From: Candidatus Peregrinibacteria bacterium
GTDB lineage: Bacteria; Patescibacteriota; Gracilibacteria; CAIRYL01; GCA-016699755
Assembly: GCA_016699755.1 (NCBI GenBank)
Contig: CP065009.1
Span: 298,098-362,097 of the forward strand
Length of the DNA stretch: 64,000 bases
Direction: 5' to 3'
The position numbers were made by a program, and so were the translations under genes. Of this stretch, positions 1,989 through 61,386 are shown piece by piece. Each line of letters opens with the position of its first letter. Positions within the stretch are counted from its first letter, which is position 1. Below the pieces are notes generated by a model. That model saw only the letters and a list, made by a program, of their open reading frames with translations, ran no database searches and was not told where the DNA came from.

Positions 1989-2873
1989 ATGGCAATTACC
2001 ATTGGTTTTTGGCTTTTCTACCTTTCGGTGTTTGGCATGCTAATTCTCTCTGTTTCCAGAGTGGGAATGGTATTATTCTCAAAGATACTTCCACATTTTC
2101 AGCGAGTACGAGCGGTGACTCAGGTACGCAAAAAGATACAACTTTCAACACCTGCTCCTGATGAAATTTCTGAGGAAGAAAAAGAAGTTTCGGAAAAAAC
2201 TCTTCAAGATGTACCTCTGTCAAATGAGGAGGCGGTAACGGAAGATGTGGAAGAAAAGACATCTCAAAAATCCTCCGAGAAAAAAGATGTTGTTCCACAA
2301 GAAATATATACCCTCCTTCATCGTGCAGAGGCTCTTATTTCTCGCAAGGAATATGAGGAGGCAAAACGAATGCTTATCAAAATACTCTCTTGGGATGATG
2401 ATCATGCGGGGGCAAATGAGCATCTTGCGTTTGTGTATTTGCAAACAGGAGAGTACTCACGTGCCGAAAATATTTTTCGAAAAGTTATCGAGACTCGACC
2501 AAGGGATCCATCACTTCTTACGAATTTTGCCCTTTCTGTTTTTCATCAAAACAAGTCATCGGAAGAAATGGATGAGTCTCTTTTGGCGCTTCGACGTGCG
2601 GCAGAGATTGATTCTAAAAATCCAGTTCGGTTTGCCAACCTTGGACAATCACTTTTTTCGGCGGGAGACATTGTTTCTGCTGCAGAATCATTTGAGAAAG
2701 CGCTTCGCTTTTCTCCGCGAAATATTGAATACCTCTTTTTTTTGGCAGACAGCTATCTTATGCTTGAGCGTTTTGCGGAAGCAAAACAGGTATTTTCTAA
2801 AATTCTCGATATTTCTCCACTCAATGAAGATGCTCGTCGAGAGCATGAGGAGTTGCGTAAGAAAGGGTTTTAA
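1989..2873 (+). CDS. membrane-anchored tetratricopeptide (TPR) repeat protein
   Basis: N-terminal hydrophobic helix, acidic linker, then several 34-aa TPR-like units (e.g. 'AFVYLQTGEYSRAENIFRKVIE'). Start could also be 1947. Confidence 0.65.
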   Translation: MAITIGFWLFYLSVFGMLILSVSRVGMVLFSKILPHFQRVRAVTQVRKKIQLSTPAPDEISEEEKEVSEKTLQDVPLSNEEAVTEDVEEKTSQKSSEKKDVVPQEIYTLLHRAEALISRKEYEEAKRMLIKILSWDDDHAGANEHLAFVYLQTGEYSRAENIFRKVIETRPRDPSLLTNFALSVFHQNKSSEEMDESLLALRRAAEIDSKNPVRFANLGQSLFSAGDIVSAAESFEKALRFSPRNIEYLFFLADSYLMLERFAEAKQVFSKILDISPLNEDARREHEELRKKGF

Positions 2874-2893
2874 TGGGAAAAACGATAAGGGGC

Positions 2894-3979
2894 TTATAGT
2901 TCCAATACTGGGAAATCAATACCCTCCCATTCTTTTTGTGGAATGTCTGTGGCGGTAATAATGGTTTGCTGTTTTTTGATGAATTCAAAAAGATGTCCTC
3001 GTCGCTGTTCATCAAGCTCCGAAAAAACATCATCCAAAAGAAGAATGGGACGTATGCTAGAAATCTCTTCTGCATACTCTATTTCTGCCATTTTGAGTGA
3101 AATAAGTGCGCTACGTACCTCTCCGCGAGATCCAGCTTCTGAGAGAGGTTGTTCTCGAAGAAGAAACGAAAAATCATCTACATGTGCGCCTATGCTAGTG
3201 GCTCCCCGACAAATGTCTTTCTGTTGATGCTTTTTGAGTTTCTGGAGTGTTTCCGAACGAGAGCTTGGATGAAAGATAATCTGAAAATTATCTTGTTTTC
3301 CAGAAATGGTTTGATAGTTTTTTGAAAGAGATTTTTGGAGTGACGTAAAAAGCTTTTCCCTTGTTTTACTGATTTCTTCTGAACTTTTTGCAAATTCTTC
3401 ATCGTAAAAACCCAATTCTTCCGCCGACGCTTTCCCTTCTCCAATTCTCTTTAAGAGCGCATTTCGAGAAAAGAGAATTTTTTCAAAGCGATGTAAAAGC
3501 GAAAGATGTTCAGGGAAAAGTGGAGAAAGAAAACGATTAAGGTATTTTCTTCTCATAAGTGGTGAGACAAAGGGGAGTAACAGATCGTCTGGAGAAAAGA
3601 GGGTGACCAAAAAGTTTTTCTTCCGAAGAATTTCAGATGTTCCCATAAGGACATCATTTCGTCGAAAGGCAGTTTTTCGGATTGGCGCAATTTGCCAGCG
3701 ATAGAGGAGATTTTCCTTTTCTGTTGTTCCTTCTATCTCCATCCATTCTTGTTCTTGTTCTATAATGGGGGCAATGTTTGTTGATCGGAACGATTTTGTA
3801 AGAGAGAGGAGCGAGAGCGCCTCAAGAATACTTGTTTTTCCAGAGCCATTTCTTCCCACAATAAGCATCCCTTTTTTCGGAATATCGTATGAAAAAGAGG
3901 TGTGGTTTCGAAAGTGTTGAAGGTGAAGATGGGTGAGCATTTTTTCTATTGATTTCTCATAAAATGTTGTAAAAGCCAT
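2894..3979 (-). CDS. recF: DNA replication and repair protein RecF
   Basis: 'LHLQHFRNH...IVGRNGSGKTSILEAL' N-terminus and 'LLLDDVFSELD' Walker B/signature region typical of RecF. Confidence 0.9.
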   Translation of the reverse strand: MAFTTFYEKSIEKMLTHLHLQHFRNHTSFSYDIPKKGMLIVGRNGSGKTSILEALSLLSLTKSFRSTNIAPIIEQEQEWMEIEGTTEKENLLYRWQIAPIRKTAFRRNDVLMGTSEILRKKNFLVTLFSPDDLLLPFVSPLMRRKYLNRFLSPLFPEHLSLLHRFEKILFSRNALLKRIGEGKASAEELGFYDEEFAKSSEEISKTREKLFTSLQKSLSKNYQTISGKQDNFQIIFHPSSRSETLQKLKKHQQKDICRGATSIGAHVDDFSFLLREQPLSEAGSRGEVRSALISLKMAEIEYAEEISSIRPILLLDDVFSELDEQRRGHLFEFIKKQQTIITATDIPQKEWEGIDFPVLEL

Positions 3980-4003
3980 TCCCTTTTTCGGGGGGGAATT
4001 TCT

Positions 4004-50955: not shown

Positions 50956-51031
50956 GCCACCATAGCTCAGCTGGTAGAGCGGTCGCTTCGTAAGCGATAG
51001 GTCACCGGTTCAAGTCCGGTTGGTGGCTCCA
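50956..51031 (+). tRNA. tRNA-Thr (anticodon CGU), CCA encoded
   Basis: Hand-folded cloverleaf: acceptor GCCACCA/TGGTGGC, D arm GCTC/GAGC, anticodon stem GTCGC/GCGAT with loop TTCGTAA, T arm ACCGG-TTCAAGT-CCGGT. Confidence 0.9.
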
Positions 51032-51097
51032 GCTTTTTCTTCACTCTCGAAGTTGTTGCTGGTAAGCCATCCAACATGGTACAAACATCATTGTTTC

Positions 51098-51172
51098 GCC
51101 GCCTTAGCTCAGTGGTAGAGCACTGCCATGGTAAGGCAGGGGTCTCGGGTTCAAGTCCCGAAGGCGGCTCCA
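51098..51172 (+). tRNA. tRNA-Thr (anticodon GGU), CCA encoded
   Basis: Acceptor GCCGCCT/AGGCGGC, D arm GCTC/GAGC, anticodon stem CTGCC/GGCAG with loop ATGGTAA, T arm TCGGG-TTCAAGT-CCCGA. Confidence 0.9.
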
Positions 51173-52495: not shown

Positions 52496-52936
52496 CTAGG
52501 TTTCTATTCCTTCCGGAAGGGTGTTGAGGAAATTTCCTACCCTCTCTCTTATCTCATCAGGAACAGAACAGTGGGCTAAGAGTGCCTTCGCAAAACTTTT
52601 TAAGACAACAATATTTTTTTCAGGAGGAGTGTCGTTACAAGAAAGAGTTGGGTTGCCTTCTGAGAGAAACATGTTTACGTCTCCGGCACGAAGAACCACT
52701 CCGGTTTTTTTCACTTCTGCGCTTGAAGGAGTCTCTCTGTCTGTAAGATAAAAAGACATATTCACCTCGTTTGGTATATGTGCCAGAATATTCTTGATGT
52801 GTTTTAGAATGCTCGAAATTTGTTGTGAAAAAAGATTTTCTCTTTCTGCTATTCTTTCTTTTGGATAACATTGCTCTGTCATTATACGAAGAAAAATGAA
52901 GAGTGCATTTTTTCTCAAAAAGAATATTCTTGTCAA
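52496..52936 (-). CDS. hypothetical protein
   Basis: 146-aa ORF convergent with the previous gene. No motif recognised. Confidence 0.4.
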   Translation of the reverse strand: MTRIFFLRKNALFIFLRIMTEQCYPKERIAERENLFSQQISSILKHIKNILAHIPNEVNMSFYLTDRETPSSAEVKKTGVVLRAGDVNMFLSEGNPTLSCNDTPPEKNIVVLKSFAKALLAHCSVPDEIRERVGNFLNTLPEGIET

Positions 52937-53031
52937 TTATTTTTCGTTTTTGCTAAAGGAAGAGGGGAATCTGCTTGATGAATACTCCGAAGTCAAAACA
53001 CCTTATTTCATTCCTTCGCCGGAGTGGGTGT

Positions 53032-53070
53032 GGAGGAGTCCCTTGCAGGAGACTCCAGCAGGAGAAAAAA
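53032..53070 (+). repeat. GGAGTC...GACTCC quasi-palindromic element, copy R1
   Basis: 'ggagtcccttGcaggagactccagcaggagaaaaa' is 34/35 identical to R3 (54146-54180) in direct orientation. Confidence 0.85.
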
Positions 53071-53185
53071 TAGGAAAAAAACAGAATATAGTTATTTCCC
53101 TTTACAGCAGTCCTCTCGCTCGTCTAAGTCTTCGTCTTTCGCCATAAACATTCGCAAATCTCACCTTGTTTTGCAAAACCTCAAA

Positions 53186-53230
53186 GAGAGACTTGGACGC
53201 AAAAAGTATAAATGAGCGTCCGAGTCTCTC
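53186..53230 (-). terminator. 15-bp stem-loop, second possible terminator behind the minus-strand gene
   Basis: GAGAGACTTGGACGC (53186-53200) pairs with GCGTCCGAGTCTCTC (53216-53230) with one G-U pair. On the minus strand a U-rich tract follows. Confidence 0.4.
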
Positions 53231-53278
53231 TTCACTCGACTCTTTTTGACTCGACCCTTTTGACTTCTCTCAAAAAGT

Positions 53279-53301
53279 GGCGAAGTCCAAGAGACTTCGC
53301 C
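53279..53301 (-). terminator. intrinsic terminator of the 53317-53919 gene
   Basis: Perfect 9-bp stem GGCGAAGTC/GACTTCGCC with a 5-nt loop. On the minus strand it is followed by ACTTTTTGAG, 16 nt after the stop codon. Confidence 0.6.
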
Positions 53302-53316
53302 AAACAAGGTACTTGC

Positions 53317-53919
53317 TCACTGACATTCGGATAAAATGGAACGAAGTTTCTTAGCGTTTTGTTCGGAGCTTTCTATCAAACTGCGATAACGAGAGTTCAG
53401 AAAGACATCAAAACTATCTATGTAATGTAAGTTCTGATTTTTATCCAAAACAACATTTTCTTCTCCATTATCTGATAAATCAAGCACCTTTCCTTTTGCA
53501 AGCCATTCATCAAAGGCATCAAGAAGATCTTCTAACTGTTGGCGTGTTTGAGGATTAGATTTTAATACTTCCAAAATATACGGTTTATTTTCTTCGGAGA
53601 GCATATCAGTTGTAATTTTTATCGGTTCTGCCAGAACCAAAGCACCAAGAGTTTGTCCGACTTTTGCCCTTATATAAGTCGCATTTGGTACTATCTCACC
53701 AAGTCTTAATTTGATTTCATCGTACTCTTTTTTGTACCTATTCAAATCATCATCTGAAATAAGGCTAAAAGATTTTTTGACATAGGTATGAGCAGTTTTG
53801 TCTCCCTGTGTGTAAGCGTGATAATTTTCACAATGACTGCCATTACGTGTATTTTTACGAATAGAAGCTTTGGGGGAGATACAAGGTACTTCTTCTGACA
53901 AGTTGGGACTTTTAGCCAT
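53317..53919 (-). CDS. hypothetical protein, weak kinase-fold-like catalytic-loop signature
   Basis: 200 aa. 'VLDLSDNGEENVVLDKNQNLHYIDSFDV' resembles the D-x4-N catalytic loop plus the (I/V)D metal-binding strand of RIO/Kdo-type small kinases. No glycine loop seen. Confidence 0.45.
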   Translation of the reverse strand: MAKSPNLSEEVPCISPKASIRKNTRNGSHCENYHAYTQGDKTAHTYVKKSFSLISDDDLNRYKKEYDEIKLRLGEIVPNATYIRAKVGQTLGALVLAEPIKITTDMLSEENKPYILEVLKSNPQTRQQLEDLLDAFDEWLAKGKVLDLSDNGEENVVLDKNQNLHYIDSFDVFLNSRYRSLIESSEQNAKKLRSILSECQ

Positions 53920-54008
53920 TGATAACGAAAGTGAAAGAAAATGTAGTTTTATTTTATTATAAAATATTTCAAGTCTAATGGCAAAATGATTCTGAAAGAT
54001 ATAAACTT

Positions 54009-54044
54009 CCTCCCGCTGGAGTCTCTCGTCAGAGGACTCCGGCG
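54009..54044 (+). repeat. GGAGTC...GACTCC quasi-palindromic element, copy R2 (inverted relative to R1/R3)
   Basis: 'ctcccGCTGGAGTCTC-tcgtcaga-GGACTCCGGC' compared with the reverse complement of R3, 'ctcctGCTGGAGTCTC-ctgaaag-GGACTCCGGC'. The arms are 15/16 and 10/10 identical and the loops are unrelated. Confidence 0.85.
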
Positions 54045-54140
54045 TTAATTGAGATATTCTGGAAATATCCTCATTCTACTGCCTTGAGTTATGGGCAATA
54101 TGATGTTGATGTTTTACATGAATGAGAACGTACCATAGAT

Positions 54141-54175
54141 CTGCCGGAGTCCCTTTCAGGAGACTCCAGCAGGAG
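54141..54175 (+). repeat. GGAGTC...GACTCC quasi-palindromic element, copy R3
   Basis: 'ctgccGGAGTCcctttcaggaGACTCCagcaggag', 96 nt downstream of R2 and fully complementary to its arms. Confidence 0.85.
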
Positions 54176-54306
54176 AAAAATGGCTCCCGCTTGTCATTAC
54201 TTTTTATTTTTGATACATTCATTTCCGATCCATTTTCTAAAATGGAATTGCATCGAGGGTTAGGCTAGAGATGTGAAAACATATCAAAGAGCCAACACCA
54301 TCCGCG

Positions 54307-54512
54307 CTCCTCCTGTCTGGGGAGGAAAAGGAGGTACTCACTGGAAACAGAGAACTATCTCTACCAGAATAGGAAAGTTTTGGATAACTTTCTGAAAAAG
54401 GGAGTCAGGGGAGGAAACAAACCTGACTTCGTGCCCAGAAATAATACTTCAAAACATTCTGAAATCGAAATCAAGGCTTTTATGAGAATTTTCTTCAAAA
54501 AGTCTTGATTTC
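54307..54512 (+). other. hairpin-rich untranslated region directly 5' of the RT (candidate ncRNA/leader)
   Basis: Five hand-folded stem-loops: 54309-54325, 54341-54367, 54373-54392, 54401-54430 (9 bp, starts with GGAGTC) and 54467-54512 (15 bp). Confidence 0.35.
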
Positions 54513-55752
54513 TCCATCCTCTTTTTATTTTACATTGTTATTAAACGAAGTAGCAGAAATAAATAGGCTTAAAAAGTGCTGGATGAGTATTTATGCCAGT
54601 AAATCTGAAGACATTAGAAAAATGTCAAAAGGAATTGACAATGTAACCCTTGAGGATTTTAAAAAGGATGATGATCAAAATTTAAAAGATATACATACTC
54701 AAATAGCAACAGGGAAATTTGAATTTGATGAAATTAAATCTATCCCCAAAAAGAAAAGTAATGGGAAAATTCGTCTTATATCTGCTCCAACTGTGCGGGA
54801 TCGAGTCGTTCATAAATCTATCTTAAGTATTTTAAGTGATGCCTTGTACGATCATATCAATACTGGTGTGAGTTACTGTGGTGTAAAAAAGGATTTTTGG
54901 AAAAAGGAAAAAGACGGACTGAGCATAAAAAGGGCTATTGAACAGTTAGTTACTTATGTGAAGAGACGCAACTATTGGATATTTGAAACAGATATTAAAG
55001 GTTTTTTTGATCATGTTCCCAAAGAAAAAATATTAAAAAAAGTATGCGAAGTGTTACCAGACAGATCGTTGGAAAAGTATCTCAAACAAATAATTTTTTT
55101 TGACATTGGGAATGAGAGTGAACTACTAAAAAAAGAAATCGAAATACCAAATAAAATTAACGGCTTGGCTCAAGGTTCTTCACTTTCACCATTATTCGCC
55201 AATCTTTTTCTTGCTGAATTTGATAATTACATGAAGAGCAAATACGGATTTAGGTATATTCGTTACGTGGATGATTTTATTGTAGTTTGTGAATCTGAAG
55301 AGGAAGCAAAAGAAGCGGAATTGGATTCGACCACAGAATTAAAAAAAGAAAATCTTGAATTATCAAAAGATAAGACCCATATTTTAGATTTGAATCGAAG
55401 TAGTTTGAAATTTTTAGGGGTTCATGTCGATAAATTCTGTATAAAACCCAAGAAAACAACTGGAAAAATAAGGGATTGGCTTGTTAGTGAAGTTTTAAAT
55501 ACTAAATCGTACAAAGTAGTTTTGAGGGCCGGAAAAGAAGTTTCCGTTATAGAACAAATAAATGAGAAAATTCAGGGTTGGGGAAACTTTTACAGGTATT
55601 ATCATGCACAAGAATTGTTTGAAAGTTTGGATGAATTTATCCTCAAAAGAAAAAAAGGGGATAAAAACCTCAAAGACATACTTCTACTCAAAGAAGTGAA
55701 GCTAGAAACAATTGTAAGTCAAGAAGAGTGGCAATCATATTTTAAGGAATAA
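54505..55752 (+). CDS. reverse transcriptase, group-II-intron-like (RT plus maturase-type thumb), free-standing
   Basis: Palm motifs: 'GKIRLISAPTVRDRVVHKSI', 'IFETDIKGFFDHV', 'GLAQGSSLSPLFANLFL', 'IRYVDDFIVV' (YxDD), 'SKDKTHI', 'LKFLGVHV'. Thumb: 'INEKIQGWGNFYRYY...LFESLDEFI'. No endonuclease or DNA-binding tail. TTG 54505 start is provisional (ATG 54583 would cut off the RT0-like 'AEINRLKKCW'). Confidence 0.85.
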   Translation: MISPSSFYFTLLLNEVAEINRLKKCWMSIYASKSEDIRKMSKGIDNVTLEDFKKDDDQNLKDIHTQIATGKFEFDEIKSIPKKKSNGKIRLISAPTVRDRVVHKSILSILSDALYDHINTGVSYCGVKKDFWKKEKDGLSIKRAIEQLVTYVKRRNYWIFETDIKGFFDHVPKEKILKKVCEVLPDRSLEKYLKQIIFFDIGNESELLKKEIEIPNKINGLAQGSSLSPLFANLFLAEFDNYMKSKYGFRYIRYVDDFIVVCESEEEAKEAELDSTTELKKENLELSKDKTHILDLNRSSLKFLGVHVDKFCIKPKKTTGKIRDWLVSEVLNTKSYKVVLRAGKEVSVIEQINEKIQGWGNFYRYYHAQELFESLDEFILKRKKGDKNLKDILLLKEVKLETIVSQEEWQSYFKE

Positions 55753-55930
55753 AATTTCTCCATCCGGTTCGCATGCACGGTATTTATTAGTGGCTGAATT
55801 ATAAGCCTATAAGGTTATTTTTTGCGCCGGACGGGGTGTTCGCGGAGGGTATTGGTGAGGAGCGACAACCCCCTTCATGACGTTTCTTCTTTTAAAAACT
55901 ATACATTTAAGGCAGGTCATGAATTCCCTT

Positions 55931-55962
55931 TCCGCTGGAGTCCGCTACAAGAGGCAGTCTTC
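55931..55962 (+). repeat. degenerate copy R4 of the GGAGTC element (R2 orientation)
   Basis: 'CCGCTGGAGTC' is identical to R2 for 11 nt and the 'AGAGG' core is retained. The distal arm has diverged ('cagtcttcc'). Confidence 0.55.
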
Positions 55963-56001: not shown

Positions 56002-56076
56002 TGGCTCTCCTTATGTATGGAAGTTCGAACTGTTTTAAGGGAAGAAGAGGGTTTTGTGATGCTAGAAATTCCATAA
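56002..56076 (+). repeat. 75-nt direct repeat, copy A
   Basis: 'tggctctccttatgtatggaagttcgaactgtttt...' aligns without gaps to 61312-61386. By hand count 58/75 are identical, and 32/35 over the first 35 nt. Confidence 0.85.
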
Positions 56077-56136: not shown

Positions 56137-57060
56137 ATGCTCTCTTATTTTATAATAATGAGGATTTTAGAAGGGAATAATATTTTTAGTAACATACAGC
56201 AGCTTCCACCTTTCTTAGGCAAAGAGGATGAAAGCAATATAATGCGACAGCAAGAATTAGGTATGTGGATCAATTCTCAGTCGGTGCAATTTGGAGAGCT
56301 TGCAGAACAAATAAAGGAGGGTGTTCATTGTACAAATTCTACTCCAGTGGTACTAAAAAACACGGGTATTCAATCTGTTTCAAAAGAAAGCAGAACAGCA
56401 ATAATGATAGGATTTTCTACTTTGTTGGGGCGACCCACCCCAACAGATAAGAGAAATAAAAAAGTTGCGTGGCCGATATCCGTTCCCAAAAATGCGGATA
56501 AAATAAATTTTCGTACTTTTTCAGAACATAATCAGGAAGCAAAACTGCATACAGATTCCCAATACCTTCAGTGTCCAGAGCAAGCGATATCTCTTTGGTC
56601 CATTCATCCTGATGGCTCAGGGGAAGGTTTATCCTATTGTGCAAGTGCACAGGACATTCTTCATGAAATGACGGCTCATTCAGCAGGACAAGAGTCGTTG
56701 CAAATTCTTCAAAGAGAGGATGTTCCATTTCGAGTGCCTTCATCATTTATGCAAGATCCTAATAGTAATCAAACAGAGGTGATTTTCGGGAAAATATTTG
56801 GTCAAAATCCAGTAATGAGATATCGAGAAGATACAATTCATGCAGGCTATGATGCTATCAATCAGATTATGCCTCCTGAAATTGAAAAAGCATTGCAAGA
56901 TATATCTACGGCAATGAACAAGGTGCAAAGTGATTTTTTTCTACTGGAAGCAGGTGATGTACTCTGGATTAATAATCACGATCATCTTCACGCAAGAACT
57001 CCCTTTTCTGATTTAGAGAGATTGCTCTTTAGAATTCGTTATAACTTTTCCCAGCAATAA
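56137..57060 (+). CDS. Fe(II)/2-oxoglutarate dioxygenase, TauD/TfdA (clavaminate-synthase-like) family
   Basis: 'AKLHTDSQY' (HxD) and distal 'WINNHDHLHARTPF' with a trailing Arg, the facial-triad layout of this family. Confidence 0.6.
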   Translation: MLSYFIIMRILEGNNIFSNIQQLPPFLGKEDESNIMRQQELGMWINSQSVQFGELAEQIKEGVHCTNSTPVVLKNTGIQSVSKESRTAIMIGFSTLLGRPTPTDKRNKKVAWPISVPKNADKINFRTFSEHNQEAKLHTDSQYLQCPEQAISLWSIHPDGSGEGLSYCASAQDILHEMTAHSAGQESLQILQREDVPFRVPSSFMQDPNSNQTEVIFGKIFGQNPVMRYREDTIHAGYDAINQIMPPEIEKALQDISTAMNKVQSDFFLLEAGDVLWINNHDHLHARTPFSDLERLLFRIRYNFSQQ

Positions 57061-61311: not shown

Positions 61312-61386
61312 TGGCTCCCCTTGTGTATGGAAGTTCGAACTATTTTGTTGGAAGAATCAGATTTTGTGGTGCCAAAGATTGTATAG
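61312..61386 (+). repeat. 75-nt direct repeat, copy B
   Basis: 'tggctccccttgtgtatggaagttcgaactatttt...', see copy A. Both copies end with a stop codon at the same aligned position in the same frame. Confidence 0.85.

Follow-up and report, generated by a model that had tools for sequence, protein, structure and literature searches.

Repetitive extragenic palindromic (REP) sequences, bacterial interspersed mosaic elements (BIMEs) and REP doublets forming hairpins (REPINs) are imperfect palindromes of 20 to 40 nt that lie strictly between genes as singlets or as inverted doublets with a spacer of tens of nucleotides, and their stems are conserved while their loops vary and compensatory changes accumulate. 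Miniature inverted-repeat transposable elements (MITEs) and mobile insertion cassettes can hold a self-contained gene unit that encodes no transposase and is enclosed by inverted repeats of ~35 bp, with left and right end variants that differ slightly. Here, we describe four copies of a ~38-bp repeat, R1 to R4, that flank a reverse transcriptase (RT) gene and its divergent neighbor, a gene of 200 codons, in a 64-kb stretch of Candidatus Peregrinibacteria DNA (contig CP065009.1, positions 298,098 to 362,097; "the window," to the whole of which our searches and counts of R copies refer). These repeats most likely belong to a known kind of element, of which they would be a local member, and are not part of the RNA machinery of the RT. 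Our tentative preference is to view them as DNA-level boundary repeats, either REP/BIME-like or similar to MITEs and terminal inverted repeats, of a small mosaic island that would be recognized by a factor encoded elsewhere.

On direct reading, the four copies alternate in orientation (+ - + -). R1 (53031-53069, plus strand) comprises an outer stem, a GGAGTC/GACTCC core hairpin at 53035-53056 and a purine tail, AGCAGGAGAAAAA, at 53057-53069. R3 (54141-54180, plus strand) is the most complete copy. Its outer stem has 4 bp and is followed by a C/A mismatch, the core of 6 bp, a bulged A, an inner stem of 3 bp and the tail, and its positions 54146-54180 are a direct repeat of R1 53035-53069 (34/35 nt identical, 97%). 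R2 (54007-54044, minus strand; core hairpin at 54018-54040, tail AGCGGGAGGAA on the minus strand) is an inverted copy whose reverse complement matches R3 at 10/10 nt in GCCGGAGTCC and at 15/16 nt in AGAGACTCCAGC[G/A]GGAG, whereas its loop is unrelated to that of R3 (CTTTCAGG versus TCTGACGAG), unlike that of R1 as well, and 1 nt longer. R2 and R3 are separated by a spacer of 96 nt (54045-54140) with a small hairpin at 54053-54069. R4 (55924-55962, minus strand) is degenerate but keeps its 3' arm and tail (GACTCCAGCGGAAAGGGAA on the minus strand) and shares the 11 nt GACTCCAGCGG and the purine-rich tail with R2. The 200-aa gene therefore lies between the inverted pair R1/R2 and the RT gene between R3/R4, with the tail of each copy facing inward toward the flanked gene, in the variant AGCAGG in the plus-oriented R1 and R3 and AGCGG in the minus-oriented R2 and R4. 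The basic layout, with the near-perfect direct repeat, the matching arms around an unrelated center, the bounding of each gene by an inverted pair and the decay of R4 beyond 11 shared nucleotides, had been described in an earlier sequence-only reading of the window and was confirmed.

Several counts set this locus apart from the rest of the window. In the 64 kb there are four occurrences of the 9-mer GACTCCAGC, one in each of the R copies (in R4 at 55934-55942), against 0.33 expected and with 0/100 shuffles reaching four. Likewise, GGAGTC-N6-14-GACTCC is found three times and a 25-nt R pattern twice, against none expected for either. The pentamer GAGTC/GACTC, for which an earlier hand count of ten in 53030-54430 is correct, has its highest density in the window there (mean 1.9 +/- 1.6 per 1.4 kb), and six of these ten belong to R copies. 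A putative fifth, degenerate half copy at 52715-52735 (TTCTGCGCTTGAAGGAGTCTC, with GGAGTCTCTC in common with R2) lies inside a 128-aa minus-strand open reading frame (ORF); the chance expectation for a 10-mer match of this sort is ~0.1. In a second strain (locus L005, 99.5% identical), the layout is the same and the R copies are unchanged. A scan for the R pattern gave five single matches in unrelated taxa across a genome collection that does not include the source genome, which is about the number expected by chance, as well as single matches in viral contigs that we also read as chance and no match in a plasmid collection.

R1, R2 and R3 fold alike (-14.1, -19.1 and -19.8 kcal/mol; z -2.4 to -3.9) into a hairpin of 13 bp in which an outer stem of 3 to 4 bp, the C/A mismatch, the 6-bp core, the bulged A and the 3-bp inner stem close a loop of 3 to 4 nt, with the unpaired tail AGCRGGAGRAA on one side. 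R4 forms no hairpin on folding because its 5' arm has decayed. Between R3 and the reverse complement of R2, three pairs are changed on both sides with pairing kept (one in the outer stem, U-A to C-G, and two in the inner stem, C-G to U-A as well as U-A to C-G), and the bulged A is retained in both. The chance probability of three such compensatory changes is ~0.016 to 0.05, which is suggestive of a hairpin that has been maintained. It had been argued before that the structure and not the primary sequence is under selection, and the stable hairpins of R1 to R3 and the three compensatory pairs bear out the first part of this claim but not the second: While the loops are indeed free (~2-3/8 identical), arms and tail are conserved in sequence at 25/26 positions (Fisher p = 1e-3 to 1e-4), implying sequence-specific recognition besides pairing. 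All stem pairs are Watson-Crick on both strands without any G-U asymmetry, so neither strand is marked as an RNA strand. Conserved stem sequence with a free loop and compensatory changes is also seen in REP families and with hairpin-recognizing DNA enzymes.

All four R copies are intergenic and, judging from their distances to predicted promoters, predicted terminators and the RT stop codon, lie outside both predicted promoter-to-terminator units. The 200-aa gene has a predicted promoter on the minus strand at 53956-53984 (TTGCCA-17-TATAAT, 11/12 consensus matches), with 22 nt between its -35 box and the end of R2 upstream. On the plus strand, R3 likewise lies upstream, by 10 nt, of the -35 box of a predicted promoter at 54191-54219 (TTGTCA-17-TACATT with TG). 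From the 200-aa gene up to the start of the RT, this is the sole promoter-like site found by our promoter scan on this strand, so the RNA partner of the RT would begin ~46 nt downstream of R3. In 9 homologous loci, a promoter-like site precedes the first RNA hairpin at the equivalent position, and the same scan detected none in the R2-R3 spacer. At the far ends, R1 lies 247 nt past the stop codon of the 200-aa gene, beyond its terminator and a second hairpin of 17 bp, and R4 begins 171 nt after the RT stop codon.

The R copies also stand apart from the RT's own RNA machinery in a comparison of ten distinct loci with homologous RTs (35-48% RT identity) from metagenome-assembled genomes labelled Gracilibacteria, Margulisiibacteriota and Patescibacteria. 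R-like hairpins are missing from all ten, as are analogous repeats that would bracket the genes, an absence that the sequence-only reading had itself named as counting against an RT-linked element. At one of them (L009), a TGGAGTA-N6-TACTCCA hairpin at 3535-3554, ~100 nt upstream of the ncRNA promoter, bears a superficial likeness to the R core, but this is a single case and probably a coincidence. What 9/10 of these loci do share is a structured noncoding RNA (ncRNA) of 230-320 nt immediately upstream of the RT, which in the window lies at 54226-54534 (plus strand; z=-6.6). We consider this conserved ~300-nt ncRNA a well-supported candidate for the RNA partner of the RT.

Across the family, the order of elements is a sigma70-like promoter, a 5' hairpin, GGTTAG, a long second hairpin, a AGAGCACCTCC box and a terminal hairpin (GAAGTCAAGG..CCTTGACTTC) that stops ~20 nt before the RT start codon. 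In the window, the 5' hairpin is P1 (54229-54244), the motif after it reads GGTTAGG, the box that follows the second hairpin reads GCGCTCCTCC, and the terminal hairpin is at 54467-54512. Conservation was judged from a profile search, from folds of the individual loci and from shuffling of the P1 hairpin, since RNAalifold on MAFFT alignments of the ncRNAs gave no consensus structure because the hairpins are out of register. The 5' hairpin is present in 9/9 loci with 4-9 bp and a different sequence in each (summed log10 p = -14 versus shuffles). A profile built from 7 homologues with the window excluded has one significant match in the 64 kb, at 54225-54402 (E=5.5e-6), and when the window is included, the profile recovers none of 183 fetched loci except those of this RT family. 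Homologous ncRNAs lie at 3733-4000 (L001), 3708-4000 (L003), 3652-3901 (L009), 52-300 (L095), 2595-2904 (L096), 2768-3000 (L097), 1112-1336 (L099) and 805-1056 (L101).

Against this background, we tentatively favor the view that R1 to R4 are boundary repeats acting at the level of DNA. Two unrelated and independently mobile units, a mini-kinase-like gene on one side and the ncRNA with its group-II-like RT on the other, would have been joined in the island, and a sequence-specific protein encoded elsewhere may bind the R hairpin or duplex via the conserved arms. Such a protein could have copied or recombined the element locally, leaving seams that would be the cassette junctions. The closest analogues would be REP/BIME palindromes, with R1 and R4 as singlets and R2-R3 as an inverted doublet, or the terminal inverted repeats of passenger cassettes that lack a transposase. 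The clustering of four copies within 3 kb, with none in the remaining 61 kb, supports boundary repeats. So do the position of all copies outside both units, the separate ncRNA and promoter of the RT family, the mutual independence of the two genes, the conserved arms around free loops, the Watson-Crick pairing on both strands and the tail variants that go with orientation.

The same clustering also weighs against this view, as do several other observations. REP and MITE families are normally dispersed, whereas R has no copy in the other 61 kb, which bounds its density at < ~77 copies per 1.56 Mb. There is no transposase, REP-associated tyrosine transposase (RAYT) or recombinase gene within ~8 kb, and no target-site duplication was found (the flanks GTGTGGA and GGCGTTA, and TCTGCC and TACCTC, have no direct repeat in common). 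Furthermore, R is missing beside a homologue of the 200-aa gene at another locus (L006), which means that it does not belong inherently to the ends of the mobile unit of this gene. The function that we propose for R is read from position and sequence pattern, and the promoters that frame it are predictions, albeit backed by homologous loci. Compared with REP/BIME/REPIN elements, R also differs by the missing 5' GTAG-type motif and by its conserved one-sided purine tail. Unlike MITEs and mobile insertion cassettes, it shows no ends of known insertion sequence families, and the R repeats are themselves hairpins.

We consider it unlikely that R instead acts in RNA, with R2 and R3 as 5'-leader hairpins of longer transcripts from the spacer (as stabilizers or as RT or RNase sites) and with R1 and R4 heading antisense RNAs or sitting in 3' untranslated regions. 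Stable hairpins with three compensatory pair changes would suit this idea, as would the co-orientation of R2 and R3 with their respective downstream genes. A weak TTTACA-17-TAGATC match at 54112-54140 would even place a transcription start at the first G of R3, and the GGAGTC/GACTCC stem is loosely similar to the base of the terminal hairpin of the ncRNA (GAAGTC..GACTTC). However, the best promoter-like sites, those backed by homologous loci, lie downstream of R2 and R3, and R is missing from all examined homologous RT loci; on these two grounds an RNA-leader or RT-binding role is disfavored. In addition, the CTTGAC that is invariant in the RT-proximal hairpin does not occur in R, R1 is located on the far side of two terminator hairpins, and conservation extends to the sequence of the arms and not to their pairing alone.

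It is also rather improbable that the copies are functionless relics of a local duplication whose arms were homogenized by template switching, though their restriction to one locus and one near-identical strain and the decay of R4 are what such relics should look like. Without constraint or targeted conversion, a difference such as that between arms at 25/26 identity and loops at ~2-3/8 would not readily arise, and the placement of the copies relative to both transcription units is too orderly to fit easily.

The sequence-only reading had offered DNA-level sites (terminal inverted repeats, recombination sites or operators) as its fallback, and it is the boundary-repeat version of that idea that we favor. 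As operators, the repeats would be palindromic sites (GGAGTC-N10/11-GACTCC) for a dimeric transcription factor that co-regulates both divergent promoters, in line with the position of R2 and R3 just upstream of the two -35 boxes and with half-sites that are conserved around free sequence. We nevertheless find this quite unlikely: R2 and R3 differ both in half-site spacing (10 versus 11 bp) and in how far they lie from the -35 box (22 versus 10 nt), R1 and R4 are not beside any predicted promoter, and no regulator gene is nearby. A factor that binds duplex DNA would, moreover, need neither a compensatory inner stem nor a conserved one-sided tail.

A similarly low, if anything slightly lower, likelihood attaches to site-specific recombination in which R2/R3 flip the 96-bp spacer or R1/R3 excise the 200-aa cassette. 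The model would be the Xer/pdif modules of Acinetobacter plasmids, whose imperfectly palindromic, alternating sites with conserved arms and a variable center resemble the + - + - array of R around self-contained modules, and R can be read as 11-bp inverted arms with a center of 6-7 bp (GCCGGAGTCCC, TTTCAG, GAGACTCCAGC). But R2 and R3 have unrelated centers, which would block strand exchange by a tyrosine recombinase, and no recombinase domain was found in the genes scanned from 51.4 to 63.6 kb. R further differs from pdif sites in having no likeness to the conserved XerD arm of the dif consensus, a conserved tail outside the arms, 10-11 nt between the hexamer cores and a chromosomal location, and both available strains are arranged identically. 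With neither a promoter-like site in the spacer nor a recombinase domain in that interval, an invertible promoter switch was rejected as well.

More speculative still, and in our eyes a long shot, is the idea that the R hairpins are cis sites of a hairpin-specific recombination system that would shuffle self-contained defense cassettes, each equipped with a promoter and a terminator of its own, in small genomes, an integron-like exchange without attC or IntI in which one cassette would carry an undescribed ncRNA-guided group-II-like RT. The attC sites of integrons are 57-141 nt long, contain R''/R' cores (RYYYAAC / GTTRRRY) and occur once per co-oriented cassette. The R repeats are not attC sites: They measure ~38 nt, have no GTTRRRY core and occur twice per gene in alternating orientation.

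The retron analogy raised by the sequence-only reading, which casts R2 and R3 as a1/a2 repeats around an msr-msd template of 96 nt, is hardly credible by now. Like retrons, the locus has an inverted pair upstream of an RT gene that is able to close a loop of ~100 nt, and a plus-strand RNA across R2 and R3 would pair strongly (-75.5 kcal/mol, z -6.6), but this pairing energy is trivial because the two are inverted repeats. The analogy fails since the RT belongs to the wrong clade, the pair is not conserved with the RT family (0/10 loci), the conserved RNA of the family lies downstream of R3 under a promoter of its own, and no promoter-like site was found that would drive a plus-strand transcript through R2 and R3. 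Solitary CRISPR-like repeats, dif, Tn3-type inverted repeats, class IIC intron target hairpins and paired type IIS GAGTC sites were each ruled out on sequence or layout, and with 87 occurrences in the window against an expected 92, GAGTC/GACTC shows no depletion.

The RT gene (54535-55752, plus strand) probably starts at TTG 54535. The mechanical ORF begins at TTG 54505, but this codon falls within the conserved terminal hairpin, and the N-termini of the homologues align to TTG 54535. The protein carries RVT_1 (1.3e-27) and GIIM (2.8e-07) domains, the latter marking an X/maturase domain of the group II type, and its best NCBIfam model is a group II intron RT/maturase (201 bits, below the cut-off of that model). 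By contrast, Retron_St85 scores only 50 bits (cut-off 235), and the scores on the retron and defense-associated RT (DRT) models remain far below cut-off. With Cas6-RT-Cas1, G2L4 and group II intron RTs as its closest relatives in the Protein Data Bank (PDB), the enzyme is, by these profile and structure-database comparisons, group-II-intron-like and not of the retron type. We found no group II ribozyme domains around it: Rfam gave no match for this region of the window up to E<=5, nor for 8 homologous loci up to E<=1. Only tRNAs and noise came out of the Rfam searches, which covered the whole window at the gathering threshold and this region and the 8 loci at relaxed E-values. The GC content of the RT gene is ~31% (54500-55700) compared to ~40% in the flanks, consistent with horizontal acquisition. 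No Shine-Dalgarno sequence precedes the RT gene, the 200-aa gene or a TauD-like gene at 56137.

At the homologous loci, the next gene begins 2-54 nt past the RT stop codon, and the RT neighbors (compared at L001, L003 and L095-L101) are different each time and include an SLFN-type helicase with MazG and MrcB_N, TIR with SLATT, HicA, resolvases, Mrr with methyltransferases, and PLD. The RT therefore has no conserved protein partner, and its contexts are defense-like or mobile. Metagenome and viral scans with the RT alignment retrieved relatives of <=30% identity at best, none of them with the ncRNA.

We note some further features of the ncRNA in the window. The terminal hairpin of the family is present in two versions, at 54401-54432 (GGAGTCAGG..CCTGACTTC) and at 54467-54512 (GAAATCAAGG..TCTTGATTTC), of which the latter precedes a T-run and has the look of a terminator or attenuator in front of the RT. 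There is also a 10-nt direct repeat, GGGGAGGAAA, at 54319 and 54408; internal direct repeats as template-jump signals were inconsistent across the loci.

The divergent 200-aa gene (53317-53919, minus strand) has no assigned function and belongs to a small uncharacterized family with 2 close relatives and 27 remote homologues. Its kinase-like invariant residues, K48, D147, N155 and D168, sit in VKK, IDLxGxxNLVL and YIDSF motifs that look like those of a minimal protein-kinase catalytic core. Profile searches of Pfam and the PDB gave nothing significant, the AlphaFold model (pLDDT 45) is too poor for a fold search, and a weak PADLOC match to Cas6 (E=0.006) was treated as noise. An 80%-identical homologue (L006-L008) adjoins a DDE transposase with neither an RT nor R, and the gene is independent of the RT rather than its conserved partner. 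The DNA homology of L006 is limited to window positions 53316-53969, that is, the ORF plus 50 nt including the -10 box. Downstream, a structured 3' region (53184-53302, minus strand) stands between the gene and R1. It begins with an intrinsic terminator (53302-53278) and also contains a tandem repeat of 14 nt (53234-53265) and the 17-bp hairpin (53184-53232), in the loop of which the window and strain L005 differ by an 11-nt indel.

The genes that flank the R-bounded island are ordinary metabolic genes. A 74-nt direct repeat, intergenic in both copies and 78-80% identical between them, is found at 56002-56075, 40 nt to the right of R4, and at 61312-61385. It starts in a manner similar to a tRNA 3' end (TGGCTC..GTTCGAAC) but is not called as a tRNA by ARAGORN or Rfam. 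Two tRNA-Thr genes are located at 50956-51172, ~2 kb to the left of the island.

As for the RT unit itself, the closest described systems are the ncRNA-templated defense RTs DRT2, DRT9 and DRT10/UG17 (PMC12632851, 10.64898/2026.04.29.721553), which similarly combine a structured ncRNA with a free-standing RT in mobile contexts and contexts resembling defense islands, and RTs of the group-II-like (G2L) kind, which resemble group II intron RTs but have no intron ribozyme (PMC2602772). DRT10/UG17 consists of an RT of the UG/Abi lineage, an adjacent SLATT gene and a ncRNA of ~137 nt upstream of SLATT (PMC12632851). Unlike the DRT systems, the RT described here lies outside the UG/Abi lineage, has no conserved SLATT or other partner protein, and is abutted at its start by a ncRNA of ~300 nt. 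An identity with DRT10/UG17 was rejected because the PADLOC model RT_UG17 (143 bits) scores below the generic RT model PDLC01136 (186 bits), the PDB relatives are of the group II type, and the window contains no SLATT gene. The ncRNA has no counterpart among Rfam families or in the literature that we searched, and the original description of the G2L3-5 RTs notes no associated RNA (PMC2602772), so the pairing of RT and ncRNA appears to be undescribed in these sources.

For the organism, the R repeats would show where a small mosaic island has its seams and may hint at a hairpin-recognizing DNA enzyme in a bacterium with a small genome. For the RT family, their analysis removes a tempting retron-like reading and exposes the probable RNA partner, a conserved ~300-nt structured ncRNA with its own predicted promoter next to a free-standing group-II-like RT, and this pair is more novel than the repeats themselves. 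If this RNA does serve as a template or guide, it would tie group-II-like RTs mechanistically to the ncRNA-dependent defense RTs.

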